In this document: in pieces, positions 1,063-61,662 of the stretch
Position numbering within the stretch: the first letter of the stretch is position 1
Layout of the letters: each line of letters opens with the position of its first letter
From: Candidatus Aminicenantes bacterium
GTDB taxonomy: Bacteria; Acidobacteriota; Aminicenantia; S016-38
Reading direction: 5' to 3'
Assembly (NCBI GenBank): GCA_026987025.1
Contig: JALSNJ010000040.1
Coordinates: 16,451-80,450, forward strand
Length of the DNA stretch: 64,000 nt
Translations under genes and position numbers: made by a program
Notes under the pieces: generated by a model
Databases searched by the model: none
Seen by the model: the letters and a program-made list of their open reading frames with translations, nothing else
What the model was told of the DNA's origin: nothing

Positions 1063-1428
1063 TCAACCGACGGTCCGGGCCATTTCCTTGGCGCTTTTTT
1101 CCATCATAACCTTGGCCAGCCCCACATTTCCTTCCCTTGGTATGGCGGCCACCAGTATGTAGGGGGTTTCGGGGACGCTGTATATGAAGAAAACGGCCTT
1201 ACCGGATATAACCGAGAGGTTTTTGAAACCTCCGACCTCGGAGGGAAGATATGAGAGGGCTTTGGCTATTTCCCTGTATATAAAGGAATAAACCCTGGCT
1301 GCCTTTTCCGGGTCGTGGCCCGGAAGAAGGGTAACCACCGCCTCCTCCCTTTCCTTTTCAAAATCGTAAATTCCCACGGCCACGCCCTGGGGGATCTTTT
1401 TTATAAGCTGGGCAGCTATGTCCTGCAT
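1063..1428 (-). CDS. Roadblock/LC7 (MglB-like) domain protein
   Basis: 121 aa. The C-terminal half (GGFKNLSVISGKAVFFIYSVPETPYILVAAIPREGNVGLAKVMMEKSAKEM) fits the roadblock/LC7 profile. It is the last gene of the H-NOX operon. Confidence 0.65.
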   Translation of the reverse strand: MQDIAAQLIKKIPQGVAVGIYDFEKEREEAVVTLLPGHDPEKAARVYSFIYREIAKALSYLPSEVGGFKNLSVISGKAVFFIYSVPETPYILVAAIPREGNVGLAKVMMEKSAKEMARTVG

Positions 1429-1439
1429 TTCGCCCTCCT

Positions 1440-1808
1440 TTAAAGGGCCACTATCAGTTCCTTGGCCTTCTCCATGGAAGTTTTTATAAGGCCTATGGGG
1501 GTGGACTTGTCAAAGAAACCCACCATGCCGAAGGGGGCCTCCTTAAGGCTCAGGATAACTATCTGGGCGTTCTCGGTTTCTAAAATGGCCTCCTCTCAAA
1601 CTCCCCGTAGGCGGCCTTGGAGCGAATTTCTATTCCCTTCCTTATGGCCCTTATTATGTCCTGACTTACCGCGGTGGCCACTTCCGGGTCCAGCCCCTCC
1701 AATTTGGAGAGGGAATCCACCAAAAGACCCGCCTCGTCAAACACCCCCCCGCAATAAGTGTTGGGAGCTCTTTACATCACCCTTTCTCGGATTTCTTTCA
1801 CATCCAGT
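1440..1808 (-). pseudogene. Frameshifted Roadblock/LC7 paralog
   Basis: Three minus-strand frames together encode one roadblock-like protein:
- frame 0: ...GDVKSSQHLLRGGV*
- frame 2: VFDEAGLLVDSLSKLEGLDPEVATAVSQDIIRAIRKGIEIRSKAAYGEFERRPF*
- frame 0 again: EEAILETENAQIVILSLKEAPFGMVGFFDKSTPIGLIKTSMEKAKELIVAL*
The frame changes sit at a 7-C homopolymer (1744..1750) and near 1596. Behind the RBS only a short GTG mini-ORF (VKEIRERVM*) and an ATG-TGA pair are present, so there is no intact start. Confidence 0.6.
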
Positions 1809-1817
1809 TTTTCCTCC

Positions 1818-2342
1818 TTATTCAGGGAAGGTTATTCTAACCTCATCCTCTGATATTTGCTCCACCTGCAGGGGGGTTTTGTAGAACTTGCCTACCCCCT
1901 TGGCCAGCCCCATAAATATGGCCATGAGCTTTCGGGGGGACTTGTACTTCATTATAAGCACATTGGGGGCTTCCCAGCGGTACTCAAACCTGGGGGGATG
2001 GGCATTGGGAATGTTCTGGGTGGCCTTTCGGTGAATTTCGTCCATTTTGAGTAGCAGTTCCCTGGCACTGGTCACCCCCCGGTAATAGGGCTTATAGACC
2101 TTGGGCATGTAAACCGTCACCCAGTATTCGCCGAAGGCGTCGGCCACCTCCTCCGGGGACAGGTTCAGGGTTCTGGATATGGACTCCACCACCGCCAGAA
2201 CGGTCTCGTCCGGCACATCTTTCCGGACGGAGAAGGTGGTGGTGCGGGGAAGGCCGGCGTTTTCCAGAACATCCATCCATTTTTCCATGCCAAAGTTTTC
2301 CACTACCAGATCTTTGATGGCGTCAATGATCGCACCCTTCAC
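1818..2342 (-). CDS. hnoX: Stand-alone H-NOX (heme nitric oxide/oxygen binding) sensor domain protein
   Basis: 174 aa. It starts MKGAII like H-NOX domains. The proximal His context is MDEIH, followed by PPRF, a YKSPRK (Y-x-S-x-R heme-propionate) motif and GLAKGVGKFY. Overall it is collinear with Thermoanaerobacter H-NOX. Confidence 0.8.
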   Translation of the reverse strand: MKGAIIDAIKDLVVENFGMEKWMDVLENAGLPRTTTFSVRKDVPDETVLAVVESISRTLNLSPEEVADAFGEYWVTVYMPKVYKPYYRGVTSARELLLKMDEIHRKATQNIPNAHPPRFEYRWEAPNVLIMKYKSPRKLMAIFMGLAKGVGKFYKTPLQVEQISEDEVRITFPE

Positions 2343-2353
2343 AGCTCGCCTCC

Positions 2354-3478
2354 TTAAATCTCTCCCAGCTCCTTCAGGGTTTCCAGGAAGGCAAGTTCGT
2401 ACTTCTTCATAATAACCCTGGCCAGCCCGAGATTCCCCTTTCTGGTCATGGCCACTCCCTGATAGTGCTTTTCCCCCAGCTGCCTCACTAAAATGTAGGC
2501 CCTATCGGTGGTTACCAGGATGTCCTCCGTCTCTCCGACGATTTCTGGCCCCCCTAGCAGTTCTAAGGCCTTGTTGTTCTGCTTTAGAACCTCAGAATAG
2601 GCGGCCGATGCCACCGTGACATCAAAATTGGGGTCCGGTGAATAGGTGGCAATAGCAAGGCCTGAGTCAAAATTGACTATAGAAGTTCCTATTAATTCCG
2701 GAATTTCCCCCGCGGCCTTTTCAAGTAGTTCTTGCAATGTTGACATTTTATCACCTCCTTTAATAATCACCTCCAATTCCTCCTCTTCCTTGGTTTTGTC
2801 CTCGTCCCTGTGCCTGGCGGCCTCCAGGACGAGGTGCATAATGCTTTCCCCTATCCTTCCCTCCTCATCATCCCTGTAGGGCCGGGAGGTAAATACCCCT
2901 CCCTCCCAGTTCATCATCTCCATAAAGGCGTCTATTCCCTTTAAATCCTCGGTTTTGGCCCACATAACCCTTCCATCCTTTATCCCCATCTCCCCCTTCA
3001 GTCCTATGGAATTTTCCACCGAAAGGGTCAGGTCCTTGTTGTAAAACGAGAGAAATTGCAGGATGTCCACCAGCTCCAGGTCGCTCAGGGAAACATCAAA
3101 TCCCTTAGTCTGGAAAATTTTGCCTATGATTCTAAGGAGCTGATTGAGGGCCACGGGCTTTTCCAGGTAAAGCAATGCCCCGGATTTTTTGGCCTTTTCC
3201 TTGAAGAAAGGGGAACCGTAGGCGGTGATGAGGATAACCCTGGTTTGGGGGAGGTTTTCCCTGATCCAGAGCAGAAGGTCAAATCCGTCCTTTCCGGGTA
3301 GTTTTATGTCGGAGATCACCAGGTCCACGGGATGCTTTTTTAAAAACTCCACCGCCTCTTCGTAGCTGTATGCCCCGTGGCATTCAAGCTTCTTGCTCAG
3401 GAATTCCATCATGGAAAGGGTTATGTTGACCTCGTCGTCAACAATGAGGATTTCGGGCTTTTTCTTTTTCTTGGCCAT
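2354..3478 (-). CDS. Response regulator with REC + DUF4388 (PATAN) + C-terminal Roadblock/LC7 domains
   Basis: 374 aa. The N-terminus (MAKKKKKPEILIVDDE...VISDIKLPGKDG) is a CheY-like receiver with a phospho-Asp context. The middle (GFDVSLSDLELVDILQFLSFYNKDLTLSVEN...GRVMWAK...GIDAFMEMMNWEGGVFT) matches DUF4388. The C-terminus (GTSIVNFDSGLAIATY...AMTRKGNLGLARVIMKKYE) is roadblock-like. Confidence 0.75.
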   Translation of the reverse strand: MAKKKKKPEILIVDDEVNITLSMMEFLSKKLECHGAYSYEEAVEFLKKHPVDLVISDIKLPGKDGFDLLLWIRENLPQTRVILITAYGSPFFKEKAKKSGALLYLEKPVALNQLLRIIGKIFQTKGFDVSLSDLELVDILQFLSFYNKDLTLSVENSIGLKGEMGIKDGRVMWAKTEDLKGIDAFMEMMNWEGGVFTSRPYRDDEEGRIGESIMHLVLEAARHRDEDKTKEEEELEVIIKGGDKMSTLQELLEKAAGEIPELIGTSIVNFDSGLAIATYSPDPNFDVTVASAAYSEVLKQNNKALELLGGPEIVGETEDILVTTDRAYILVRQLGEKHYQGVAMTRKGNLGLARVIMKKYELAFLETLKELGEI

Positions 3479-3490
3479 CGTTTTATTTTG

Positions 3491-3506
3491 AGCAAAAAAT
3501 GTGCCA
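3491..3506 (-). promoter_or_regulatory. Sigma-54 (RpoN) -24/-12 promoter for the REC-DUF4388-Roadblock/H-NOX operon
   Basis: The minus strand reads TGGCACattttTTGCT, an 11/11 match to TGGCAC-N5-TTGCW. The GC of the -12 element is 12 nt upstream of the ATG at 3478, which predicts a leaderless transcript. Confidence 0.6.
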
Positions 3507-3561
3507 GAAAATACCCCATTTAAAACTTGATGTTTTCCAGGGGGGTGGTAAAATTTTTTCT

Positions 3562-4467
3562 ATGAAGGAAGCATTGCCCGTAAACCTGGTAGGTTTTTTT
3601 TGCGAATGGGAAGATAGGTTGACAGTTTTGCCGAAGGATTTCTCGGGGCTATTTCTTCCCAAAATGCAGGAGATATTGAAGGAAGTGGAGGGTGGAAAGA
3701 AAATTGTCAGCATAGGGAGCTGCAATTGGGAGGTTTTTGACTTCAGCAGCGAGGTGGGGGAGGGAGGGATTCATAGGCTTTTGATTTTCGTTCCATTAAA
3801 CCGGGAGATGACACACATATACTCCATGATAATTCACGAACTCAAGAACCCCATAGCAGCCATAAGGGCCATGGTTCAGGTTATGGAAACGGGCATAAAG
3901 GAGGGTGTTCAGGAAAGGGAGAAACTCCTTCAATACACCTCCCTGATCCTGGAGGAAATAGACAGGATGAACCGGATTCTTTCTTCCATAATGAAGCTGG
4001 CGAAGCCTAAAACAAGGTTTAGATTTAAATTTGACCTGGTGGAGGAGACGAAAAAGGCCATGGCCACATGGGGTCAGGAATTCAAGTCGCAGGGTATAAA
4101 GATGACCCTGATTACCAACCGGGAGAAAATATACTTCTTGGGAAATCCCGACGAGATCCATCAGATAATAAACAATCTTCTGAGGAACTCTAAAGAAGCC
4201 CTGGAGGGGGTAAAGGAACCCAGGGTGATTGTGGATATAACGGAGACACGGGGGGAAATTATAATGCGGGTAAAAGACAACGGCCGGGGCATGGAGCCGG
4301 AGGTTATGGAAAAGATTAAAACCTCCTTTTATTCCTCCAAACCCCAGGGCCTTGGGCTGGGTCTCTTCGTGGTAAAGAGCATCGTGGGAATGTACGGCGG
4401 AGAACTTAACATAAAATCGGAGGAAGGAAAGGGCTGCGAGATAACCCTGAGGTTTCCCAGAAGATGA
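3562..4467 (+). CDS. Cytoplasmic sensor histidine kinase (HisKA + HATPase_c)
   Basis: The H-box is HELKNPIAAIRAMVQV. The N-box and G-boxes are NLLRNSKEAL, DNGRGM and GLGLGLFVVKSIV. There are no TM segments. The start is ambiguous: the ORF track begins at 3499, but that ATG lies inside the divergent sigma-54 motif, so I prefer the ATG at 3562. Confidence 0.75.
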   Translation: MKEALPVNLVGFFCEWEDRLTVLPKDFSGLFLPKMQEILKEVEGGKKIVSIGSCNWEVFDFSSEVGEGGIHRLLIFVPLNREMTHIYSMIIHELKNPIAAIRAMVQVMETGIKEGVQEREKLLQYTSLILEEIDRMNRILSSIMKLAKPKTRFRFKFDLVEETKKAMATWGQEFKSQGIKMTLITNREKIYFLGNPDEIHQIINNLLRNSKEALEGVKEPRVIVDITETRGEIIMRVKDNGRGMEPEVMEKIKTSFYSSKPQGLGLGLFVVKSIVGMYGGELNIKSEEGKGCEITLRFPRR

Positions 4468-5699
4468 GCGACATCCTCATAGTGGAGGACGACCTGAACT
4501 TTGCGAAGGCGCTGGAGGATTATCTTTCAGCCAGGGGGTTTGAGGTGAAGGTAGTCCTCAACGGGAAAAAGGCCCTGGAAGTTGCCCGCAGCGAAACCCC
4601 TGAGATAGTTCTCCTGGACCTTTTTCTTCCGGATTATAGCGGTCTAGATCTGATACCAGAGCTTTCCTTAACCTCCTCCGTGGTGGTAATAACCGGGGCC
4701 GGGGAGGTGAGACTGGCGGTGGAGGCCATGAGAAGGGGAGCCTACGACTTCCTGGTTAAACCGGTAGATCTGGAGGCCTTAGCCCTGAAACTGGAAAGAT
4801 TTTTTCCGGTCAGGGTCGTGCACGGCTTAATTGGCAATTCCCCTGCCATGAGGAGGGTGGTAGAGGAGGCGAAATTGGCCTCCCGGGGGAGGGCCAGCGT
4901 GCTTATCCTGGGGGAGACAGGGGTGGGAAAGGAGGAGGTGGCCAGGGCAATATACCGTCTCTCAGGCAGAAGGGGAAAGTTCGTGGCGGTAAACGCTTCG
5001 GCCCTTCCTGAGCCCCTTTTTGAGTCGGAGCTTTTCGGCCACAGAAGGGGGGCCTTCACCGGAGCCACCTACGACAAAAAGGGCCTGCTGGAAGAGGCCC
5101 AGGGAGGGGTGTTCTACCTGGACGAAATTACGGAAATGCCCCTTCACCTTCAGGCCAAGCTCCTGAGGGTTCTGGAAACCAGAACTTTGAGAAGGTTGGG
5201 GGAGACCCGGGACAGGGAGGTGGAATTTAAATTTATCGCCTCATCCAATTTGAAAATGGAGGAATTGAAGGAAAGGCTCAGGGAGGACCTCTTTTACAGG
5301 ATTTCCACCTTTATAATTGAAATCCCCCCCCTCAGGGAGAGGAAGGAGGACATAATCCCTCTGGCTAAGCACTTCATAAGGGAATTCGGAAGGGAAAAGG
5401 GAATTTTCGGGATAAGCCCCCCGGCGGAAGAAATTCTCCTGAAGTATTCCTGGCCCGGCAATGTAAGGGAGCTTAGGAACGAGATAGAAAGGGCCTGCTT
5501 AGTGGCCAGCGGAAGGCAACTGGAACCCTCCCATTTCAGCGAGAGGATCAGGGGGGAGCACAGGATTCTTACCCTGGAAGAGATGGAAAGGGAATACATA
5601 AAAAAGGTTCTCCAGATCTGTGGGGGCAACAAAAGCAGGGCCGCTAAGCTTCTGGGAATTTCCCGTCCCACCCTGCGGAAAAAACTGAGCGAGGGCTGA
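4464..5699 (+). CDS. Sigma-54-dependent response regulator (NtrC family: REC + AAA+ sigma-54 activator + Fis-type HTH)
   Basis: 411 aa with a REC domain (VLLDLFLPD), a Walker A (GETGVGKE), ESELFGH, the GAFTGA loop and a C-terminal HTH (RAAKLLGISRPTLRKKL). It overlaps the HK stop by 4 bp. Confidence 0.9.
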   Translation: MSDILIVEDDLNFAKALEDYLSARGFEVKVVLNGKKALEVARSETPEIVLLDLFLPDYSGLDLIPELSLTSSVVVITGAGEVRLAVEAMRRGAYDFLVKPVDLEALALKLERFFPVRVVHGLIGNSPAMRRVVEEAKLASRGRASVLILGETGVGKEEVARAIYRLSGRRGKFVAVNASALPEPLFESELFGHRRGAFTGATYDKKGLLEEAQGGVFYLDEITEMPLHLQAKLLRVLETRTLRRLGETRDREVEFKFIASSNLKMEELKERLREDLFYRISTFIIEIPPLRERKEDIIPLAKHFIREFGREKGIFGISPPAEEILLKYSWPGNVRELRNEIERACLVASGRQLEPSHFSERIRGEHRILTLEEMEREYIKKVLQICGGNKSRAAKLLGISRPTLRKKLSEG

Positions 5700-22009: not shown

Positions 22010-23454
22010 GGGGATTTATTCTTTTTCTAACGCTCGCAGGGAGCCTTCTGGGAAAAACCCTTTACTTCGGCGTGAGGGGGGAACCAGTATCCCTTGACCC
22101 CGCGGCCCAATGGGAGGATGTATCCTCCATGGTGGTTTCCAATATTTTTGAGACCCTGGTGGAGGTAAAGCCCGGTAGCTTAGAGATAATGCCTAAATTG
22201 GCCGTCAGGTGGGAAAGGTCTAAAGATGGGAAGAAATGGGTTTTTTACCTAAGGCCCGGGGTGAAGTTCAGCAACGGCCAGCCCCTTACCTCCAGGGAGG
22301 TGGTTTACAGCTTCAAGAGGCTTCTAAAAATGCCCCCCGGAAGGTTTCTTTTTCCCTACATAAAGGAGATCAAGGCCCTGGGGAAGAACAGGGTGGTCTT
22401 CCTTCTTAAGAGGGAATTTTCTCCTTTCCTCCATCTGCTCACGGTGACCCAGGCCTCGGTAATTTACCCATCCAGAGGAGAATTAGGGTTTTTGGGAACA
22501 GGGCCCTATTATGTGAGCCTCTGGCAGAAGGGCAAGAGGATGGTGCTCAAGAGAAACCCCTTTTACTGGGGGAGGATGGGGAACATAGACAAGGTGGTTA
22601 TGCTCTTTTCCCTTTCCATGGATTCTATCTATTCTCTCCTTCTCAGGGATAAGCTGGACCTTACCAACGGCATATCCATGTCCAGGGTGGAGGCCCTTCG
22701 CAATTCAGGAAGGTTTTACCTTTTGTCTTCTCCGGTCCTTTCCTTAGAATACCTCGTTTTTAACCCTGAGGACCCGTGGGCAAAGAAGGGTTTCGTCAGG
22801 GAGGCCCTTTCCTACATATGGAACAGCCGCTGGGTCAGACTTTCCTTCGGCAACTACAGGGAACCCGCCTGCAGGATAATTCCCTTTTCTTCCAGGAGAT
22901 GCCCCTTCGGATATCAGCCCCGGAAAGCCAGGGCTCTGCTCAGAAAAAACAAAGTCTTCGGGAGAGTGAAGTTGAGCCTGGTATACCCTGACGATGCCCT
23001 CTACGCTAAACTCCTGCTTCCCTTTGTCAACGAGGCCAAGAAAATAGGGATAAACATCAAATTGGTGCCGGTGAGGAGCGGGAGGGAATTGGATGAGATT
23101 TATCGCCGGAGAAAATATTCACTCTCCCTTTTTACCTGGATCTGGGATTATCCGGAACCCTACAATATACTTTCCTTTTTGCTTTCAGGCGAGAAGGTCC
23201 TGACCAGCTATCCCACCATATCATCCTTTCAGGGAGTTAAACTCCTCAGGAATACCCTGGAGGAGGCTCTGTCCATGGACACCTCCCGGCAGAGAAGGGC
23301 CGTTTACGAAAGGGTGGAGGGGGAAATTCTCAGAAAAAGGTGGATTATACCGGTATCGTATCTTAAGGTTTCCCTTTTTGTGAATAGAAGGATAAAGGGG
23401 ATTAAGGTTGATCCCACCGGCCTCGTCAGATTAGGGGAGATCTTCAAGGAATGA
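22006..23454 (+). CDS. Second family-5 solute-binding protein paralog
   Basis: 482 aa with WVFYLRPGVKFSNGQPLTSREVVYSF and a signal peptide. Its 4-bp overlaps with both neighbours are consistent with a single operon. Confidence 0.75.
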   Translation: MRGFILFLTLAGSLLGKTLYFGVRGEPVSLDPAAQWEDVSSMVVSNIFETLVEVKPGSLEIMPKLAVRWERSKDGKKWVFYLRPGVKFSNGQPLTSREVVYSFKRLLKMPPGRFLFPYIKEIKALGKNRVVFLLKREFSPFLHLLTVTQASVIYPSRGELGFLGTGPYYVSLWQKGKRMVLKRNPFYWGRMGNIDKVVMLFSLSMDSIYSLLLRDKLDLTNGISMSRVEALRNSGRFYLLSSPVLSLEYLVFNPEDPWAKKGFVREALSYIWNSRWVRLSFGNYREPACRIIPFSSRRCPFGYQPRKARALLRKNKVFGRVKLSLVYPDDALYAKLLLPFVNEAKKIGINIKLVPVRSGRELDEIYRRRKYSLSLFTWIWDYPEPYNILSFLLSGEKVLTSYPTISSFQGVKLLRNTLEEALSMDTSRQRRAVYERVEGEILRKRWIIPVSYLKVSLFVNRRIKGIKVDPTGLVRLGEIFKE

Positions 23455-25538
23455 AGATCAAATTAAAGCTGATATTGTTTTCTCTGTTCATCATATTTCT
23501 TTCCCTTTCCTTCATCACCGGTTTATTTGTGTTCAAGCTCAGAAGCAGCTTAAAAAAGACAGAAATAGAACACCTTTCAGTTTCCCTGCGAAGGGCCGAA
23601 AGTCTCTTTTACGATTACCTTGCCCAGCTAAACAGAATAGCCACCTTTCTCTCTGAGACGAAGGAAATTTCCGACAATATTGAGAATCCTGAGGTCATGG
23701 GGATTTACCTTCAGCAAAAGGATCTTCTTTTTCCCTCTGGCTCAGTAATAATTTTCAACGAAAGGGGAGATCGTCTTCTTTCCTACAGGGCGGATTCTTC
23801 TCCATGTCCCTTTGAGATTAAGCCCTATTTGAAGTCCAGCCAGGGAATCCTAAGGTTGAGCGGGGTAAAGGAGATGGGGAAGAGCCTTTGCTTTATTTCC
23901 TTGGCACCCATTGTTAATCCCAATTCCTTAGAAGTTAAAGGGTATCTGCTCATAGAAAGGCACATAGATTCCGACTTCGCCGATTACCTGAAGGAAAGGG
24001 TAAGGGAGGAGATCTTCCTTTTTGACAGGACGGGAGATTTCCTGGGGTCTACCTATATTGGAAAGGAGGGAGACAGGATTTTCCCCTCCAGAATGAAAAG
24101 GGAAAGCTGGGGTTGGGTGGGTTACATTGAAGGGCGACCGTATTTTCTAAAGGAAACGCTCATAAGGTGCATGGACGGAAGTGCATGCGGGAAAATTTTA
24201 ATAGGGAAGGAAGAGACGAGAATGGTGGCCCTTCTAAAAAGCTCCGTAAACTATGCCCTCATCGCTTTTTTAGTGGACTTCGCCTTTGCCTTCCTTCTTA
24301 CGATTTTGCTGGGAAATCACTTTACGAAGCCCATAGGACTTCTCTCCGAGGCCGGGCAAAGATGGGCTAAGGGGGCCCTGGATTACAGGTTAAACCTTCA
24401 GAGGAGGGACGAATTCGGCCATCTGGCCAGCGTCTTCAACTACATGGCAGAAGAAATAAAGGTAAAACACGAAGAGCTCCGCAGGACCAAGGCCTTTTAT
24501 CAGACCATAATAGACAGCAACCCGGTGGGGGTGATTGCCTGTGAACCCTCCGGCAGGGTGGTGAGCCTCAACAGGGCCGCCCAAAGGATCTTTTCCGGGA
24601 ACCTGAAGGAGGGGGAAAACCTTTTTGCGATAAAGGGGCTTGAGGGGATAAGGGAAAAATTTACCAGGGCCCTTCTGGAAGGAAAGGCTCAGGAAGCCTT
24701 CGGGGTGGAGGCTGAGGTTCCTGCAAGGAAAATGGTTTTGAAGCTTCTCATGTATCCCGTTCAAAGGGAGGAGGAGCTACTGCTCATAGTTCAGGCCGAG
24801 GATATTACCCGGAAAAGGGAGATGGAGCAAGAACTTTATCACCTGAGGAAGCAGGCTCTTTTAGGAACCCGACTTAGCTCCTACGCCCACGATATAAACA
24901 ACTATTTAACCACCATATTGGGATACCTTGAAATAATGGATTTAAAGGTGGCGGACCCCTCCCTGAAGGAGGAACTTCAACGGGTAAAGAAAACCACCAG
25001 AGCAGCGGCTAAACTTTCCAGGTCCATTCTTGACTTTTCCAAGGAAAAAATGAAGAAGGAGGTGGTGAACCTCAACGATGTGGTGGAGTCCACCCTGGAT
25101 TTCGTAAAAAGGCTTCTTCCCCGAAAAATAGAAATAGAATTCAATAAGGAAGGAGATGGATTCAGAGTCCTGGGGGATCCCAGTAAAATTTCCGTGGGCC
25201 TTTACAATCTTCTTATTAACTCCATAGATGCCATCATGGCTTCGGGAAAGGAAAGGGGAAAAATAAAGGTTAAGGTTGGGGCCGAGTTCGATCCCAGCTC
25301 AGGAGAACATGTGGCCAAATTGGTGGTGGAGGACAACGGCACAGGGATAAGGCAGGAGAACCTGGATAAAATCTTTGAGCCCTATTTCACCACCAAAGGA
25401 AGCGAGGGAACGGGCCTTGGACTTTACATGGTAAGAAATATGGTGGAGGAGATGGGAGGAAAGATAACGGTGGAAAGCAAGCCTGGAGAATGGGCAAGGT
25501 TTACCCTTATGTTCCCCCTGTGGAGGGGAAGGGGCTAA
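23451..25538 (+). CDS. Membrane sensor histidine kinase (periplasmic sensor domain, HAMP, PAS, HisKA, HATPase_c)
   Basis: 695 aa. TM1 is at residues ~5-27, a periplasmic region of ~230 aa follows, and TM2 is at ~262-285. Then come a HAMP domain (HLASVFNYMAEEIK), a PAS domain, an H-box (SYAHDINNYLTTILGYLEI) and G-boxes (DNGTGI / GTGLGL). Confidence 0.85.
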   Translation: MKIKLKLILFSLFIIFLSLSFITGLFVFKLRSSLKKTEIEHLSVSLRRAESLFYDYLAQLNRIATFLSETKEISDNIENPEVMGIYLQQKDLLFPSGSVIIFNERGDRLLSYRADSSPCPFEIKPYLKSSQGILRLSGVKEMGKSLCFISLAPIVNPNSLEVKGYLLIERHIDSDFADYLKERVREEIFLFDRTGDFLGSTYIGKEGDRIFPSRMKRESWGWVGYIEGRPYFLKETLIRCMDGSACGKILIGKEETRMVALLKSSVNYALIAFLVDFAFAFLLTILLGNHFTKPIGLLSEAGQRWAKGALDYRLNLQRRDEFGHLASVFNYMAEEIKVKHEELRRTKAFYQTIIDSNPVGVIACEPSGRVVSLNRAAQRIFSGNLKEGENLFAIKGLEGIREKFTRALLEGKAQEAFGVEAEVPARKMVLKLLMYPVQREEELLLIVQAEDITRKREMEQELYHLRKQALLGTRLSSYAHDINNYLTTILGYLEIMDLKVADPSLKEELQRVKKTTRAAAKLSRSILDFSKEKMKKEVVNLNDVVESTLDFVKRLLPRKIEIEFNKEGDGFRVLGDPSKISVGLYNLLINSIDAIMASGKERGKIKVKVGAEFDPSSGEHVAKLVVEDNGTGIRQENLDKIFEPYFTTKGSEGTGLGLYMVRNMVEEMGGKITVESKPGEWARFTLMFPLWRGRG

Positions 25539-27897: not shown

Positions 27898-28271
27898 AGC
27901 TTTCTTTCCAGTGCCCTCATTTCTCCGCGGTCGGTTTCGTGGTCGTAGCCCAGAAGATGAAGGAAGCCGTGTATGAGCAGGATTTTAAGTTCCTTCTCCA
28001 AGGAGTGGCCCAGCTGCTGGGCCTGCCTCAAGGCCGTTTCAGTTGAAATTATCACATCCCCAAGATAATCTTCCTGTCCCGCCTGAAAACTTAAAACATC
28101 GGTGGGTTCGTTCTTCCCCCTGAAAAGCCTGTTCAGTTCCTTTATTTTTTTGTCGCTAACCAGAACCACGGTGAAATCCCTCTTTTCGGAAAATTCCTCC
28201 TTCAGCTTTTCCTTGAGCTCAAGAAGAGGTTTTCTGTTTATTTTTACCTTCCTCTGTCGGTTTAGCACCAT
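27879..28271 (-). CDS. ybeY: Endoribonuclease YbeY (16S rRNA 3' maturation)
   Basis: HGFLHLLGYDHETD zinc-binding motif. The ORF begins at 28295; the MVLNRQRK start (28271) is equally possible. Either way the 5' end overlaps the upstream 7TMR-HD gene. Confidence 0.8.
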   Translation of the reverse strand: MVLNRQRKVKINRKPLLELKEKLKEEFSEKRDFTVVLVSDKKIKELNRLFRGKNEPTDVLSFQAGQEDYLGDVIISTETALRQAQQLGHSLEKELKILLIHGFLHLLGYDHETDRGEMRALERKLWKKFL

Positions 28272-29682
28272 TTTTCCCTTCCTTCGGGTACTCAACCCTT
28301 TTGTGGTGTATGGCTGTCAAGCTTTTTATGATTTCTTCCTTGACCACCCTCAATTCCCTCATATTAATGGGGGCTTCGTCAAACTGTCCGTCTTCCAGCA
28401 GGGCTTTGAAGATGGAATTTACCGTGGACCTTATGCTTTCCTCGTTGGGTTCCTTCAGGGACTTTACCGCCGCCTCCGAAGAGTCGCATAGCATAACTAT
28501 GGCTGTTTCCTTGCTCTGGGGCTTTGGGCCAGGATATCGGAAGGTGGTCTCGTCGGCGTCGCTTCCCATTTCCTTCGCCTTGGCGTAGAAGTATTTTACC
28601 AGGGTGGTCCCGTGATGCTGGGCTATGAAATCTATTATTTCCTTGGGAAGCCCCATTTCCTTTCCCATTTCCACCCCTTCCTTCACATGGTTTATTATTA
28701 TCATGGCACTGAGAGAGGGGCTTTTGTTTTCGTGAGGGTTGGGAAGATTCACCTGATTCTCTATGAAATACTGGGGCATTTTTAATTTTCCTATGTCGTG
28801 GTAAAGGGCACCGGCTCTGGCCAGAAGGGAGTTGGCTCCGATGGCGTCGGCGGCCCTCTCGGCCAAGGTGGCCACCATCAGGGAATGATGGAAGGTCCCG
28901 GGGGCTTCCAAGGCCATTTTTTTAAAGACATCCTGATTGGTATTGGCCAGCTCAATAAGCCTCAGGGGCGATACTATTCTAAAGAGATACTCTATGATGG
29001 GCACTAAGAAAGAGGCTATAATGCTCAGCTCAAGGACATTGACCGTGGAGGCAGTCAGGTCGTGGAGGAAGGTTCTGGGGGAGAGTTTCTGAAGGTGCGA
29101 GAAGAGCAGAAACAGGAGGGATGCGGGGTATAATATTACGAAGGCGGTTCTATAGATGGTTCCCCTCCTCATTTTCCCGTAATGCAGGACCCCATAAATG
29201 GCCCCGAAACCGAGGAGGAAGGCATAAAGGAAGGCCATAACATTACCGGTTATTCCCAACACTCCCAGTGATATAAGAACGGTTAGAATTATTGATGATA
29301 AAGGCTCAAAGATGTATGAAAGCACCAGAACAGCAAAGGAATATGGAAAAGAAAACAGGATGATCTCCTCTGCCTGGCTCCCCATGAGCCTCAAAAGTGC
29401 CGTTTTGTGAAGGAGGAAAAGAAGAAAAGTAAAGAGAAAGGAGAAGATAACAACATTAATGGTTTTGTCAAAATTCCTCTTTCCGTTGGCCTCCCGCAGA
29501 ATTTTTGTCAGGAAGTAGAGGAAAAGGAAAGAATAAAGGAGAGCCAGGGGGGAGTAATTCACCGAGTACAGGAAATAAACACCCACGAATACTGTAACTG
29601 CCACACCGATTATCTTGAGGAGAAGACCCACTTTAAGGCTTTCTTCCCTGAGCTTCAGCCCCCCTCGCTTAGGTTTTCCCAT
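28219..29682 (-). CDS. 7TM receptor with intracellular HD-type phosphohydrolase (PgpH/YqfF-like 7TMR-HD)
   Basis: 487 aa with 7 predicted TM helices followed by an HD domain (HHSLMVATLAERAA...GALYHDIGK). Confidence 0.8.
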   Translation of the reverse strand: MGKPKRGGLKLREESLKVGLLLKIIGVAVTVFVGVYFLYSVNYSPLALLYSFLFLYFLTKILREANGKRNFDKTINVVIFSFLFTFLLFLLHKTALLRLMGSQAEEIILFSFPYSFAVLVLSYIFEPLSSIILTVLISLGVLGITGNVMAFLYAFLLGFGAIYGVLHYGKMRRGTIYRTAFVILYPASLLFLLFSHLQKLSPRTFLHDLTASTVNVLELSIIASFLVPIIEYLFRIVSPLRLIELANTNQDVFKKMALEAPGTFHHSLMVATLAERAADAIGANSLLARAGALYHDIGKLKMPQYFIENQVNLPNPHENKSPSLSAMIIINHVKEGVEMGKEMGLPKEIIDFIAQHHGTTLVKYFYAKAKEMGSDADETTFRYPGPKPQSKETAIVMLCDSSEAAVKSLKEPNEESIRSTVNSIFKALLEDGQFDEAPINMRELRVVKEEIIKSLTAIHHKRVEYPKEGKNGAKPTEEGKNKQKTSS

Positions 29683-33976: not shown

Positions 33977-35734
33977 TCACAGCTCTATCTCTTCCCATAG
34001 GGTCATGGCTTCCCTCAGCAGCTCCACCCCTTCCAGAATAAGAGTCCCCGCGGTGGTGATTTTGTCCTCTTTAAAGAAGTGCGAAATCTTGGCCTGGGTG
34101 AGGGTTTTTCCGAAAATTTCCGGGTCGAGCCCGGAGAGCCTCTCCGCTTCTCTGAGGTTAACCCTTCCCTTTTCCTCGGTGGCCTCCTGGGCCGATAGCA
34201 GGAATCTTACAAGATGGGGTGTGAGGGGAAACTCTATCCCATCGGGGACTGCAGATATGGCCCTCTTGATTCTCTCCCCTGCCTCGGTGAGACGGTAAAA
34301 TCCTCCGGGAAGAGCGTCTATCAGGGACTGTCCCACAAGCTTTCTCAGGGCAGAACGGACATGTTCCTCCTCCCTTGGGGGAAATTTGCCCAGAATCCAG
34401 GGCTCAAAAACCCCCCTCCACAGGGGCATTTGCTTGAGGACCCTGGCTTCAAAGGCGGAAATCATGGGCAGCCTTTCAATGGAACTGGCCAGCTGGGCGA
34501 AGAATCTTCCGGATTTGCTGGGATATCCGTTGCCGAGAAGACCCTGCTCCTCTGCCTTGGATACCCAGGAATCCCCCGGAGAGAGGTTTTCCATCCTGGT
34601 GGTGGTTATGGCCATTACGGCGGTAGCGGACACTTCCCTTTTACCAGTCTGTTTCCTGTCCTGCAGAACCCTTTCCCCCCACTCCGTCAGTTCATAGACC
34701 AGTTCCCCCTTTTCCCCTATTTTGGAGTGAAGCATCCTGTAGCTTTCCATAAGGTAGAGGGAATAGGAGACCTTCCAGGGCGTTATGGAGTTCTCCTCGG
34801 CCCTCTTCTTGATCTGAGAATAGCTGGGATAGACCTCCGGATTATTTTCGTGGGCCCTCCAGAGTTCTTCTATTATTTCCAGTACGGTAAGGTCCTGAAG
34901 GTCAATGTCTATGGAAGGGTTCACGGTTATCGGTTCCACATAAAGTAGCTGGGCCGCCTTCAGAAAATGTTCGCCGGCAGGGAGAAGGTTTCCTTCCCCA
35001 TCCATGGCGCCCATAAGCATCAATTTCTCCTTTTCTTCTCCCTGGAGTTCTCCCTCCAGCAGGGAAACGAGAATTTCGTCTGTGAGCGGGAAGTTCACCG
35101 GAGCCCCCTTAAGGAGTCCTGCTCTTATCTGCTGTCCTGCCCCGGTGAGGGAGTAGTTGCTCCCGTAGGGAAGGGAGAAGGTCAAAAGCCCCATGGCCTC
35201 CAGTTGCATCACATCTTCTTTATTCAGGGGAAGGAAGGTTTTTTTGCCCGGTCCCGGAGGGGTTTTTTTCAGTTTTTCTGCCAGGGCAGGGGAGATGAAA
35301 ACCCTGGATTCGGCTATTTTGTAGGCCTGAAGAAGAGATTCTCCTATGGGGAGAAGCTTTCCCTCCATGGCCAGGCCTCTTTTCTGGAGAGCTGAGGAGA
35401 TCTCTTTCTTAAGGGATATGTTCCCCTGGCTTAAAACCGCTATCTCCAGCATGGAGATTACCTCGGAACCCACGAATCTGAAGTCCTCCCCCCATTCCTC
35501 CACGGGACCTATGCTCTGCTCACACTCCCTTATGGCCTCAGCCACCATGTGACCTGCCTGGGTGAGGGTATAAACACCATTTTCCTCGGTAAGGAGACCC
35601 TCCAGGTCCAGGTGGAAGAGGTATTCTATTTCTTCTTCAGTAAGTCTATCCAGGATCCGGTCCAGCTCCATCCCCTGCTCCCATTTTTCCGCCATCCTCT
35701 TTATGAGGGCTGCGTGCTTTTTCAGGATTATCAT
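33977..35734 (-). CDS. Large cytoplasmic protein built of ~8 tandem winged-helix-like repeats (each ending in an [aromatic]-x-L-T-x-x-G motif)
   Basis: 585 aa. Repeated recognition-wing-like motifs are YTLTQAGH, YSLTGAGQ, LLPIGESL, LLPAGEHF, YELTEWGE, YRLTEAGE and TTAGTLIL. There is no TM segment or signal peptide. Confidence 0.55.
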   Translation of the reverse strand: MIILKKHAALIKRMAEKWEQGMELDRILDRLTEEEIEYLFHLDLEGLLTEENGVYTLTQAGHMVAEAIRECEQSIGPVEEWGEDFRFVGSEVISMLEIAVLSQGNISLKKEISSALQKRGLAMEGKLLPIGESLLQAYKIAESRVFISPALAEKLKKTPPGPGKKTFLPLNKEDVMQLEAMGLLTFSLPYGSNYSLTGAGQQIRAGLLKGAPVNFPLTDEILVSLLEGELQGEEKEKLMLMGAMDGEGNLLPAGEHFLKAAQLLYVEPITVNPSIDIDLQDLTVLEIIEELWRAHENNPEVYPSYSQIKKRAEENSITPWKVSYSLYLMESYRMLHSKIGEKGELVYELTEWGERVLQDRKQTGKREVSATAVMAITTTRMENLSPGDSWVSKAEEQGLLGNGYPSKSGRFFAQLASSIERLPMISAFEARVLKQMPLWRGVFEPWILGKFPPREEEHVRSALRKLVGQSLIDALPGGFYRLTEAGERIKRAISAVPDGIEFPLTPHLVRFLLSAQEATEEKGRVNLREAERLSGLDPEIFGKTLTQAKISHFFKEDKITTAGTLILEGVELLREAMTLWEEIEL

Positions 35735-58862: not shown

Positions 58863-61022
58863 TTATCTTACGATCTGCAGTTCCTGGAGAATTCTTTTAG
58901 CCCCCTGGAATTTATCGGTGATGAAGAGCACATACCTGGCGTCCACGGAGATGGACCTGGTGATGGGGGGCCAGAAGTAGTAGTCGCTCACCACGCTTTC
59001 CAGGTTGCCGTCAAAAAGGAGTCCCACCAGTTCGCCCCTTCCGTTAAGAACCGGGGAGCCTGAATTTCCTCCCGTGGTATCGTGGGTGGTCAGGAAATCC
59101 ACGGGGATATCCTGGAGTTCGGGGTCTTCGTAGGGGCCGAAGTCCCTGCTTTGCCAGAGTTTTTTGAGTTTTTCCGGGACTATGAAGGGTTCCCTTCCGG
59201 TTTCCTTTTCCATCACTCCCCGGAGGGTCGTCTGGGGAAGGTAGAAGACGGCATCCCTGGGAGAATACCCTTTCACGGTTCCATAGGTCAATCGTAGGGT
59301 TCCGTTGGCGTCAGGATACATGAATTCTCCTCCGAAGACCTCCCTCCACAGGGCATAGTACTTGGGCAGGAAATCCAGGGACTTTCCCGAAAGAACCTTG
59401 CCCTGTCTTTCCATGGCATCCAGTTCGGGCAAAAGCTCTAAGGCGAATTTTATGAAGGGGTCCTGGCATTTTACTATCCTGCTGTAAGGGGAATTGAAGA
59501 GGGCCAGTCTGGTTTTGAGGTCCCCCAGTTTTGTTTTGCTGTAGAGCTCATCAAGGAAGGCCTCTATATTCTTTTCGGAAAAATCCCCGCCAAGCACCCT
59601 TTCCACGGCCTTCAACCTGTATTCCTTAGGTACCTTTCCCTGTTGCATGAGGAAGTATTTGAGAACCTGCCTGTCGGTCCAGGGTTCATAGGCCATATCC
59701 ACCATTTTCAGGCGGATGATGTGGTTTTCCCTATCCCGGTCCATGTAGCCGGGCTTCCTGTCTATGTCCTTCTTCATCCTTTCCCTGGTCCAGTAAACTA
59801 TCTCCAGGGCAGCCGAGAGCAGCCTTGAACCGTAGGGAAACCATCCGGAGTAAAAGCTCTTCATGGTTAAAGCCTTCCATTCCTGGAAGAACTCCCGGTA
59901 GCGGGGCAGAACATCGGAATACTCCGTTTTTAACTCAGGCGATGCTTCAACGGCCTTCAAGAGCTTCTCTTCCAGCCTCTTTTTCTTCTCCACAACCTTC
60001 AGCCTCTTAAATCCATCCAGCTGGCCTCTCCAGTTTTTAATGGCGTTGTTGAGGCCTTTGAGAATGCCGGCGTTTTTAAGCCTGGCCAATTTTCCCCTTT
60101 TGGATCCCTCCTCCAGGATTTTTATCCAGCCTTCTAAGAATTTTATTCGCCCTGGATAATATTCCTTTTCCATGAATTCTGCGTAAAAGCTGGGCATATA
60201 CCTCTGGGTGGCCCCCGGGTATCCTAAGATTAACATGAAATCCCCAGGGTTTATGTTTCGGGCGGAAAATTTAAGGTAAACCATGGGCTGGTAGGGGACA
60301 TTTTTCGGCGAGTATTCTGCCGGCTTACCGTCCGGCCCCACATAAGCCCTGAGAAAGGAAAAATCCCCTGTATGGCGGGGCCACATCCAGTTGTCAATTT
60401 CCCCTCCGTAGTTTCCTATGCTGGAGGGGGGAACATAGACTATCCTTATGTCCTTGAGTTCAAGGTAGGTAAAGAGATAATATTTTTCGCCTCCGTAAAA
60501 ACTACGAATAACGCAGCGATAGCCGGGTTTTTCCCTCCTTTTTATGAGCCTTTTCCTGTTCTTCTCCAGCCTCATGTACCTCTTATAGGGATCCCTTATC
60601 TTCATTACCCCCTTGAGGACTTCGCCCGTCACATCCTCCATTTTGAGAAGAACCAGGGCTTTGTAGCCAGGGGCAGGTATCTCATCCTTCATGGTTTCAG
60701 CTAAGAAGCCCTTTCTTATAAGGTCAATTCCCCTGCTGGCGCTCTGACGCTGGATAGCTCCGAAGGCCACATGGTGATTGGTTACTATAAGACCTTTCGG
60801 GGAGACGAAGGAACCCGTTCCTCCCATCAGGTTCACCACCGCCTGGGAGAGGGAAGGACCTCCCTGCTTCCAGATATCTTCCGGAGTGAGCTGTAGCCCC
60901 ATGGACTTCATCCTCTGGTAAAGGGCGGGGGTGATCCTTTGAGGTAAAAACATCCCCTCTTCCGAAAATAAATAGAAGAAAGCAGCGGCGAAAGCCAACA
61001 GAAAAACGAGAAATTTTCTCAT
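58863..61022 (-). CDS. S46-family dipeptidyl-peptidase (DPP7/DPP11-like serine peptidase)
   Basis: A signal peptide is followed by an N-terminal chymotrypsin-like half with GLIVTNHHVA (His) and a C-terminal TGGNSGSPVLNGRGELVGLLFDGN (Ser). Confidence 0.8.
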   Translation of the reverse strand: MRKFLVFLLAFAAAFFYLFSEEGMFLPQRITPALYQRMKSMGLQLTPEDIWKQGGPSLSQAVVNLMGGTGSFVSPKGLIVTNHHVAFGAIQRQSASRGIDLIRKGFLAETMKDEIPAPGYKALVLLKMEDVTGEVLKGVMKIRDPYKRYMRLEKNRKRLIKRREKPGYRCVIRSFYGGEKYYLFTYLELKDIRIVYVPPSSIGNYGGEIDNWMWPRHTGDFSFLRAYVGPDGKPAEYSPKNVPYQPMVYLKFSARNINPGDFMLILGYPGATQRYMPSFYAEFMEKEYYPGRIKFLEGWIKILEEGSKRGKLARLKNAGILKGLNNAIKNWRGQLDGFKRLKVVEKKKRLEEKLLKAVEASPELKTEYSDVLPRYREFFQEWKALTMKSFYSGWFPYGSRLLSAALEIVYWTRERMKKDIDRKPGYMDRDRENHIIRLKMVDMAYEPWTDRQVLKYFLMQQGKVPKEYRLKAVERVLGGDFSEKNIEAFLDELYSKTKLGDLKTRLALFNSPYSRIVKCQDPFIKFALELLPELDAMERQGKVLSGKSLDFLPKYYALWREVFGGEFMYPDANGTLRLTYGTVKGYSPRDAVFYLPQTTLRGVMEKETGREPFIVPEKLKKLWQSRDFGPYEDPELQDIPVDFLTTHDTTGGNSGSPVLNGRGELVGLLFDGNLESVVSDYYFWPPITRSISVDARYVLFITDKFQGAKRILQELQIVR

Positions 61023-61644: not shown

Positions 61645-61662
61645 CAGCAAGAAGCATGCCAG
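61645..61662 (-). promoter_or_regulatory. Sigma-54 promoter upstream of the pilin gene
   Basis: The minus strand reads cTGGCATgcttcTTGCTg (TGGCAT-N5-TTGCT). It lies ~40 nt upstream of the pilin ATG, and an AAGGAGG RBS sits in between. Confidence 0.6.

Follow-up and report, generated by a model that had tools for sequence, protein, structure and literature searches.

A stand-alone H-NOX gene in a PATAN-Roadblock operon of uncultured Aminicenantes, beside a histidine kinase and a sigma-54 activator

Introduction

Bacterial H-NOX signalling is known to end in cyclic di-GMP (c-di-GMP) turnover, quorum sensing or chemotaxis receptors. The corresponding genes usually adjoin genes of histidine kinases or diguanylate cyclases, H-NOX bound to nitric oxide (NO) inhibits the kinase, and one kinase can serve several regulators (PMC8738867). 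The reference hnoX-hnoK systems are those of Shewanella oneidensis and Vibrio cholerae, namely HnoX/HnoK with HnoB, HnoC and HnoD, and the H-NOX/HqsK-LuxU-LuxO pathway of V. harveyi and V. parahaemolyticus, in which H-NOX/HqsK feeds the sigma-54 activator LuxO (PMC3759921, PMC6759604). Here, we describe a locus in 64 kb of DNA from a Candidatus Aminicenantes bacterium (contig JALSNJ010000040.1; this whole stretch is referred to as the window), where a stand-alone H-NOX gene is part of a minus-strand operon, together with the gene of a response regulator composed of receiver (REC), PATAN (DUF4388) and Roadblock domains and two small Roadblock genes. The genes of a histidine kinase and an NtrC-type sigma-54 activator are found on the plus strand, divergent from the operon. 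Homologous stretches and relatives used for comparison are coded L001 etc. for loci and P0001 etc. for proteins.

The locus resembles the hnoX-hnoK systems in having a stand-alone H-NOX with the His and YxSxR residues and an apolar distal pocket, a soluble kinase that lacks a sensor domain, and more than one receiver as the likely target, with a sigma-54 activator ending one branch, as does LuxO. The layout is also comparable, as the sensor-less kinase is encoded one gene away from H-NOX in divergent orientation and, in locus L015, directly downstream of it. The locus differs in that its outputs are a REC-PATAN-Roadblock protein and free Roadblock paralogues, rather than c-di-GMP enzymes or quorum-sensing components, in that H-NOX belongs to the operon of the regulator and not to that of the kinase (save for L015), in that the sensor operon is predicted to be sigma-54 dependent, and in that the hosts are uncultured Aminicenantes and Acidobacteria.

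Other described systems should also be considered. The MglA/MglB/MglC-RomR module of Myxococcus and other Deltaproteobacteria likewise combines Roadblock-fold proteins with a response regulator, and MglC and single-domain Roadblock proteins are what the Roadblock domain of the window regulator resembles most. PATAN and Roadblock genes are known to cluster with MglA/MglB and with type IV pilus control (PMC4316618; bioRxiv 10.1101/2021.06.11.447907). Unlike the Mgl module, the H-NOX-linked loci that we examined contain H-NOX and no MglA-like GTPase, and no motility genes are nearby. The actinobacterial conservons (AGPS), which comprise the CvnA kinase, the Roadblock protein CvnB, CvnC and the GTPase CvnD, share with our locus a sensor-less kinase, a Roadblock protein and a separate accessory sensor (CvnE/CvnF), and in these Roadblock/GTPase systems, stand-alone accessory sensors are found beside sensor-less kinases (PMC13343842). 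In sequence, the regulator's Roadblock domain also matches a solved CvnB (3leq). However, the window and the Pfam annotation of L095 and L001 contain neither CvnC (DUF742) nor CvnD, the kinase of the window is a canonical HisKA kinase paired with receivers, and the accessory sensor is H-NOX, rather than a GAF protein or a P450. Finally, the cyanobacterial PatA-type proteins PixG, PixE and PilG also carry a PATAN domain fused to a receiver, and act by protein contact (with the pilus motor PilB1/PilC) and not by DNA binding. In the window, in contrast, the order is reversed (REC-PATAN), a Roadblock domain is appended, and a kinase with H-NOX takes the place of the chemotaxis-like photoreceptor system as input.

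Every component of the locus thus comes from a known family, while their combination is so far confined to uncultured bacteria. An initial annotation, made from the DNA letters alone, had not recognized the combination as a described system and, in agreement, none of the papers returned by our full-text searches linked H-NOX to Roadblock, PATAN or DUF4388. The single co-mention concerned the fold similarity of H-NOX and TRAPPC3 (PMC10933270), and a published H-NOX neighbourhood network lists kinases, GGDEF/EAL, FIST, Nudix and others, and not Roadblock, PATAN or DUF4388. A conserved link of H-NOX to PATAN/Roadblock proteins would add a new output class to H-NOX signalling. As the best-understood PATAN/Roadblock relatives set cell polarity and control type IV pili, the locus could tie the sensing of NO to polarity or to movement on surfaces, in a phylum that lacks cultured, genetically tractable members.

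Results

Recurrence of H-NOX with PATAN-Roadblock genes

We scanned the subfamily to which the window H-NOX belongs, taking one genome per species, and sought partners within 3 kb of each of the resulting 80 H-NOX loci with our own set of queries. A PATAN/Roadblock partner was found in seven loci, from metagenome-assembled genomes (MAGs) labelled Candidatus Aminicenantes or Acidobacteria, with an H-NOX identity to the window of at least 58%. CheA/CheB partners were found in nine loci (ANME-1, Methanosarcinales and Bacteroidetes), a sigma-54 activator in four (Electrothrix), a histidine kinase as the only partner in three and a receiver domain as the only partner in one, while 56 of the 80 presented no partner detectable with the queries used. 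This neighbourhood mining, which the initial annotation had proposed as a check, thus places H-NOX with PATAN/Roadblock genes in at least seven species-level genomes, and such recurrence, at H-NOX identities down to 58%, indicates that the arrangement is not a chance adjacency.

The H-NOX, regulator, kinase and activator genes are found together in the window and in L001, L002, L004, L009, L010, L014 and L015, with H-NOX identities ranging from 86% to 58%. In this Aminicenantes/Acidobacteria clade, the regulator is always directly 5' of H-NOX and the kinase and activator genes are always adjacent, the pair being divergent in most loci. In L015, the regulator, H-NOX, kinase and activator genes follow one another in this order on one strand, with H-NOX directly 5' of the kinase, which by gene order is the classical hnoX-hnoK layout. 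The tail after H-NOX consists of type B and type C Roadblock genes in the window, L004 and L014, of a second H-NOX and a free type A Roadblock gene (a copy of the regulator's Roadblock domain) in L001, L009 and L010, and of nothing in L002. The 2.7-kb contig L013 holds only a free type A Roadblock gene, followed by H-NOX. The number of H-NOX genes equals that of type A Roadblock domains in every locus (about nine loci from related genomes), the ratio being 1:1 in the window, L002, L004, L013, L014 and L015, and 2:2 in L001, L009 and L010. The second H-NOX/Roadblock copies apparently arose separately in the L001 and L009/L010 lineages, as judged from shallow neighbour-joining trees without support values.

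Genes of the H-NOX operon

Read from 3478 to 1063, the minus strand carries four consecutive genes about 10-16 nt apart, according to both the open reading frame (ORF) listing and direct reading. The features of the locus are listed in Table 1. All of the genes that the initial annotation had described are present where it had placed them on the map. As for their order, the regulator and H-NOX genes indeed come first, but the decayed Roadblock gene lies between H-NOX and the intact 121-amino-acid (aa) copy, and not at the end of the operon.

Table 1 Features of the H-NOX locus in window coordinates, with the basis of each assignment.
Feature	Position	Strand	Basis or remark
Intact type C Roadblock-fold gene, 121 aa, last in operon	1063-1428	-	hhalign, AlphaFold2, Foldseek
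Type B Roadblock pseudogene	1440-1801	-	Three-frame translation against the intact genes of L004 (8541-8900) and L014 (2564-2929)
Stand-alone H-NOX, 174 aa	1818-2342	-	Pfam HNOB, PDB matches, conserved heme-site residues
REC-PATAN(DUF4388)-Roadblock response regulator, 374 aa	2354-3478	-	Pfam, PDB profile search, AlphaFold2
Regulator, Roadblock domain	2357-2746	-
Internal Shine-Dalgarno AAGGAGGT and ATG, in frame	2744-2760	-	ATG encodes the first residue of the regulator's Roadblock domain
Regulator, PATAN domain	~2798-3091	-
Regulator, REC domain	~3125-3451	-
Predicted sigma-54 (-24/-12) promoter TGGCACATTTTTTGCT	3491-3506	-	Ends 12 nt 5' of the regulator ATG
Predicted sigma-70-like kinase promoter, extended -10 (TTGATG, 16 nt, TG-n-TAAAAT)	3527-3554	+	Consensus scan
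Soluble histidine kinase, 301 aa from ATG 3562	3562-4467	+	Pfam, orthologue alignment, promoter position
NtrC-type sigma-54 activator, 411 aa: REC, AAA+ with GAFTGA, Fis-type helix-turn-helix	4464-5699	+	Pfam, translation

The H-NOX gene begins with a GTG 11 nt past the stop codon of the regulator and has its own AAGGAGG ahead of this start. Its product matches the full length of Pfam HNOB (PF07700; profile positions 1-163 of 163, E 4.5e-39, 134.4 bits, as compared to a cut-off of 25.5) and the solved structures of Nostoc H-NOX (4e-17), Tt H-NOX and sGC beta1; a relative, P0001, is 99% identical. The proximal His104, Pro116/117 and Tyr133-x-Ser135-x-Arg137 do not vary among 44 H-NOX homologues, and the heme ligands of Nostoc H-NOX (His105 and YxSxR) are the counterparts of His104 and the YxSxR motif in the alignment. 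When motifs are aligned to the Tt H-NOX sequence, the position of the distal Tyr140 presumably corresponds to Ile142 in the window protein, and those of Trp9 and Asn74, which belong to the hydrogen-bond network of Tt H-NOX, presumably to Ile9 and Trp74. By this motif alignment, the window H-NOX has no distal tyrosine and thus falls outside the O2-binding (Tt-type) subclass. Binding of O2 by H-NOX needs such a tyrosine (PMC8738867). As the heme-site residues are invariant and an isoleucine takes the place of the distal tyrosine, the window H-NOX is predicted to bind heme and to behave like members of the NO-selective class.

Elsewhere in the subfamily, whose members are stand-alone proteins of 173-174 aa, H-NOX genes were seen within chemotaxis operons, namely in L067, L074, L076, L077, L059 and L065 (ANME-1 and Methanosarcinales) and in L032 and L049 (Bacteroidetes). 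The order is cheB, H-NOX, cheA in ANME-1, while in Bacteroidetes, H-NOX adjoins cheB and a REC-kinase gene. To us, it seemed unusual that archaeal che operons should contain a stand-alone H-NOX. In Methanoperedenaceae (L006-L008 and L042), the H-NOX (47% identical) is an orphan with no signalling partner nearby, and a run of heme/siroheme biosynthesis genes (a hemL-like aminotransferase gene, hemC, a TP_methylase gene and hemD) is found at a distance of about 4 kb.

For the regulator, Pfam yielded Response_reg (1.6e-23) and DUF4388/PatA_N (PF14332; 4.9e-12, 46.4 bits, as compared to a cut-off of 25, residues 130-227), while the C-terminal 130 aa remained below the Robl_LC7 (PF03259) cut-off of 23, at 13.3 bits and E 0.07. 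Of the Pfam matches anticipated by the initial annotation, HNOB and DUF4388 were thus above their cut-offs, and Robl_LC7 was below its own for the sequences of the window itself. Nonetheless, 5 of the 17 members of the C-terminal domain family match Robl_LC7, at best with 2e-13, and the profile of these 17 sequences found, in the PDB, a Thorarchaeota Roadblock protein (7f8m, 3e-13), MglC (7ct3, 7e-11), CvnB5 (1e-6) and MglB (8.5e-4). The AlphaFold2 model of the regulator (mean pLDDT 82) consists of three independent domains joined by flexible linkers of low confidence at residues 124-133 and 229-241. Among 687 homologues, many carry the JGI name 'CheY-like / regulator of Ras-like GTPase activity (Roadblock/LC7/MglB)', and hundreds keep the three-domain architecture. 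The most divergent H-NOX-linked regulator, that of L015 (425-1795, 456 aa), contains an insert of about 100 aa between PATAN and Roadblock, with its PATAN region being below the Pfam threshold; this long form is shared by P0130 and P0131.

Within the regulator gene, a Shine-Dalgarno signal (AAAGGAGG, AAGGAGG) followed after 5-8 nt by an ATG is present in all eight H-NOX-linked regulator orthologues, and is kept in L004 despite different encoded residues (KRREAM vs KGGDKM). The regulator homologues without H-NOX that were compared (L099, L089 and L094) lack it. In L013, the Roadblock domain is encoded as a gene of its own directly 5' of H-NOX. The internal site points to a candidate translation start that would give a free 130-aa Roadblock protein or, otherwise, to a conserved trace of gene fusion.

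The type C protein at the end of the operon gave no usable match in Pfam or NCBIfam. Yet, when compared to the Roadblock profile of the regulator, it scored an hhalign probability of 99.3% (E 7e-21), and its AlphaFold2 model (pLDDT 93) has the alpha-beta-beta-alpha-beta-beta-beta-alpha topology of Roadblock proteins, in which a C-terminal helix is typical of the MglB type. Foldseek matched the model to the Streptomyces Roadblock protein 3kye (top) and M. xanthus MglB 6hjm (TM 0.86 at rmsd 1.6, with a TM range of 0.84-0.88). A word-indexed homology search found two relatives and an exhaustive search only seven among 1.84 billion representatives; the type C family is thus tiny, and by these searches the protein is a small lineage-specific branch. 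The type B gene is broken by an in-frame TAA at 1772-1774 (codon 10; a substitution) and by a frameshift near 1592-1597. Its repaired translation has no Pfam match and scored an hhalign probability of 96.5% against the Roadblock profile. Profile-level homology to Roadblock proteins was hence found for the regulator domain and for both small genes, with a matching fold for the 121-aa protein, and the Roadblock calls of the initial annotation hold according to the PDB profile search, hhalign, and AlphaFold2 combined with Foldseek. The bases of the window are identical (0 mismatches) in the ENA and Logan assemblies, although these assemblies may share reads; as they agree base for base, the lesions cannot be put down to a single assembler. 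We accordingly rejected an assembly artefact as the origin of the broken gene, since three assemblies agree and the lesions are a TAA substitution and a frameshift. In L010 (7243-7503), the free type A Roadblock gene has lost its first ~40 codons by 5' truncation, which is a second case of decay among accessory Roadblock genes.

The kinase and the sigma-54 activator

The kinase consists of about 85 N-terminal aa that match no recognized domain, followed by HisKA (2.6e-11) and HATPase_c (2.9e-22). No sensor domain was recognized by Pfam and no hydrophobic segment was seen by eye, while 13 homologues share the H box (HELKNP, His92) and the N, G1 and G2 boxes. The real start is probably ATG 3562, which is common to the orthologues. 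The start of the mechanically called ORF, at 3499, was rejected, as it would leave 20 nt between the divergent genes and overlap the sigma-54 promoter.

The start of the activator gene overlaps the stop codon of the kinase gene by 4 nt. Its product matches Sigma54_activat (7.5e-57), Response_reg (2.1e-21) and HTH_8 (1.7e-16), and thus combines the REC, GAFTGA-bearing AAA+ and HTH_8 elements of NtrC-type enhancer-binding proteins. Its best NCBIfam models (AtoC, PEP-CTERM RR and NtrC) all scored below the equivalog cut-off. Both the kinase and the activator had been called in this manner by the initial annotation, with which Pfam and the GAFTGA motif in the activator translation agree.

Promoters

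The element at 3491-3506 is the sole perfect match to TGGCAC-N5-TTGCW in the 64-kb window. It is found at the same position in L001, L004, L009, L010, L014 and L015, and in a weaker form in L002. It is also found ahead of the paralogous regulator gene in L095 and of a gene in L094, and precedes some 14 further homologous loci of deltaproteobacterial type, usually as the sole match in a locus. As this conserved sigma-54 promoter lies directly 5' of the regulator gene, the regulator/H-NOX/Roadblock operon is a probable target of the neighbouring activator, which probably drives it.

The kinase promoter has an extended -10 element (TGGTAAAAT) that ends 7 nt 5' of the kinase ATG, and its block GTGGTAAAAT is conserved in six orthologous loci. 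As the -10 element ends so close to the ATG, the kinase-activator transcript would be leaderless, and since no Shine-Dalgarno is found between the sigma-54 promoter and its ATG, the regulator mRNA would be leaderless or nearly so. In 3478-3562 and in the orthologous intergenic regions, both divergent transcripts are indeed apparently leaderless, with the -12 element lying 12-13 nt from the regulator ATG. Neither of the two divergent starts has a Shine-Dalgarno, while the internal genes of the operon have strong ones.

A wider module without H-NOX

About 35 metagenome loci, some of them in MAGs that bear the label Deltaproteobacteria, contain a trio of kinase, activator and regulator genes. In these loci, a 287-aa sensor-less kinase and a 441-aa activator are followed by one or two REC-PATAN(-Roadblock) regulators. 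A PATAN-Roadblock protein, a clear homologue of MglA and a further PATAN protein often come next; in L094, L089, L128 and L133, for example, PATAN-Roadblock and such an MglA homologue are encoded after the trio. None of the ~35 trio loci contains H-NOX, which takes the place of PATAN-Roadblock and MglA only in the Aminicenantes/Acidobacteria clade. We found no description of this larger module, which comprises the sensor-less kinase, the sigma-54 activator and the sigma-54-dependent REC-PATAN-Roadblock operon, with MglA or H-NOX attached. The PATAN domain, which is poorly understood, thereby gains a regulatory setting that can be tested.

No MglA-like GTPase was detected with a hidden Markov model of five MglA sequences in six-frame translations of the window, L095, L001, L009 and L004, and no MglA-like gene was found in any H-NOX-linked locus examined. 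The regulator entry P0121 (locus L095, from the same genome as the window) extended our view 7.6 kb past the left end of the window. The absence of a neighbouring small GTPase, on which the initial annotation had remarked, is thus borne out for both the 64-kb window and these 7.6 kb. In L095 (15150-19176, about 4-8 kb past the left end of the window), we observed a second, paralogous kinase-activator-regulator cluster on one strand, which encodes a 185-aa protein without a Pfam match, a 320-aa kinase, a 442-aa NtrC-type activator and a 358-aa REC-PATAN-Roadblock regulator. The paralogous regulator has its own predicted sigma-54 promoter, and the cluster, which contains neither H-NOX nor a GTPase, is also present in L004 and L009/L010. 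A GTPase hidden among the 185-aa and 191-aa Pfam-less proteins of this cluster was considered and rejected, as these lack a P-loop and resemble short PATAN-Roadblock proteins.

Discussion

The reading that we favour, and in which our confidence is evenly balanced, is that the locus may encode an H-NOX-equipped, lineage-specific NO two-component system of the hnoX/hnoK kind, with a transcriptional and a PATAN-Roadblock branch. H-NOX would bind heme and report NO (or, possibly, carbon monoxide or redox state) to the kinase, as HnoX does to HnoK, and the kinase would phosphorylate two receivers, those of the activator and of the REC-PATAN-Roadblock regulator. The phosphorylated activator would turn on the sigma-54 promoter and induce the sensor, the regulator and the Roadblock paralogues; as the promoter is that of their own operon, a feedback loop would result in which sensor and regulator are themselves induced. 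The phosphorylated regulator would work post-translationally through protein-protein contacts, most likely with the polarity or surface-motility machinery, since PATAN and Roadblock proteins of other bacteria work there. We infer the gating of the kinase and the phosphotransfer steps, with the kinase step relying on the analogy to hnoX/hnoK, the transcriptional step on the conserved promoter and the output on the known roles of PATAN and Roadblock proteins. A motility context is favoured by the finding of the same H-NOX subfamily between cheB and cheA in other lineages. The interpretation of the initial annotation, in which an H-NOX-gated kinase phosphorylates both receivers, is as a whole partly supported. 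Action of the activator on the H-NOX operon is a probable addition, based on the promoter, to a model that had treated the activator only as a parallel branch.

Several observations nonetheless weigh against this two-component scheme. The H-NOX and kinase genes of the window are on opposite strands, with the regulator gene between them. The closest and most constant neighbour of H-NOX is a Roadblock domain and not the kinase, as is seen in the Roadblock/H-NOX pair that stands alone in L013, and the copy number of H-NOX follows that of type A Roadblock and not that of the kinase. The homologous kinases of the deltaproteobacteria-like loci are sensor-less too, yet have no H-NOX, such that the Roadblock/GTPase side may be what feeds the kinase. 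The 64-kb window contains no genes for pili, gliding, flagella or GTPases, and the conserved blocks 5' of the sigma-54 promoter offer no convincing enhancer (upstream activating sequence) for the activator, the sole other conserved block in that region being the extended -10 of the kinase promoter.

Given that H-NOX and type A Roadblock match in number and that H-NOX stands where other loci have PATAN-Roadblock and MglA, the partner of H-NOX could be Roadblock, rather than the kinase. H-NOX would then dock on the type A Roadblock domain in the role that an MglA-like GTPase has in the homologous loci, with heme ligation replacing GTP/GDP; the Roadblock dimer would read the heme state, and the kinase would sense the complex or act only upstream. 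We hold this to be rather unlikely. TRAPP is a GTPase-exchange complex built with longin/Roadblock-like subunits. The H-NOX fold resembles that of V4R/TRAPPC3, a TRAPP subunit (PMC10933270). In the loci themselves, H-NOX is always directly 3' of a type A Roadblock coding sequence, with gaps of 2-33 nt, and the pair occurs in L013 without REC or PATAN. The counts agree in every locus, including those where second copies apparently arose separately (L001 and L009/L010), and the conserved internal Shine-Dalgarno and ATG would supply a free Roadblock domain. Moreover, the deltaproteobacteria-like loci have PATAN-Roadblock and MglA and never H-NOX, while H-NOX loci never have MglA. However, the parity comes from about nine loci of related genomes, the free copy of L010 is 5'-truncated and the trees are shallow and lack support values, while any signalling partners that are co-expressed would be expected to show gene order just as tight. 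In sequence, moreover, the regulator's Roadblock domain is nearer to the adaptor MglC than to the GTPase-activating protein MglB, and so need not bind a switch protein at all, and we know of no case of H-NOX binding a Roadblock protein. That a heme gas sensor took over the role of a small GTPase, with NO-bound or free H-NOX binding a dimeric type A Roadblock platform as MglA binds MglB, we regard as unlikely. If true, a Bet3-like and a Roadblock/longin-like fold would be paired in bacteria as they are in eukaryotic TRAPP, given the relation of the H-NOX fold to V4R/TRAPPC3. Direct binding of H-NOX to Roadblock would be, to our knowledge, the first non-nucleotide switch on this ancient GTPase-regulator fold.

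It is improbable, in our view, that the genes are merely co-expressed, with the partner of H-NOX (a diguanylate cyclase or another kinase) and the GTPase of the regulator being encoded elsewhere. H-NOX can evidently work with distant partners, as 56 of the 80 subfamily loci have no signalling neighbour detectable by our queries, and the fast turnover of accessory Roadblock genes, as in the pseudogene of the window and the truncated copy of L010, suggests weak constraint. Still, the genes remain adjacent at H-NOX identities as low as 58%, across inversions and rearrangements that affected the kinase-activator pair (L015) and across repeated co-duplication with Roadblock, and the 11-nt gap together with H-NOX's own Shine-Dalgarno points to coupled expression. 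Sensing of heme/thiol redox state or of heme availability, rather than of a gas, has been proposed for some H-NOX proteins, and seems very improbable here. Methanoperedens, ANME-1, Electrothrix and Nitrospirae, the lineages with the rest of the subfamily, are anaerobes, in which exposure to NO is not guaranteed; the hosts of our loci are known only from MAGs, and the Methanoperedens orthologue lies near heme-biosynthesis genes. Oxidative activation and heme-free redox sensing by H-NOX are, moreover, documented (PMC12329717, PMC8738867). Against this stand the complete and invariant heme-binding set (His, Pro-Pro and YxSxR) and an apolar distal pocket like that of NO-selective H-NOX proteins.

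Other features of the window

The window also encodes a HAMP-PAS membrane histidine kinase (23451-25538, plus strand), a 7TMR-HD (7TM-HD) protein (28219-29682, minus strand) and a DUF505 protein with a winged-helix N-terminus (33977-35734, minus strand), none of which seems to be linked to the H-NOX locus. The second-best sigma-54-like site of the window (TGGCATGCTTCTTGCT, 61646-61661, minus strand) has one mismatch and lies about 620 nt 5' of an S46 peptidase gene (58863-61022), with no obvious gene start just downstream. On the minus strand at 1038-1066, a near-consensus sigma-70 promoter (TTGACA, 17 nt, TAAAAT; 11 of 12 positions) overlaps the stop codon of the 121-aa gene. It would serve the genes of tRNA-Val (957-1030) and tRNA-Asp (872-949) directly 3' of the operon, and as the tRNA pair has this sigma-70-like promoter of its own, the operon is taken to end at 1063. 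L009 and L010 show synteny for the tRNA pair and the signal peptidase gene downstream of it.

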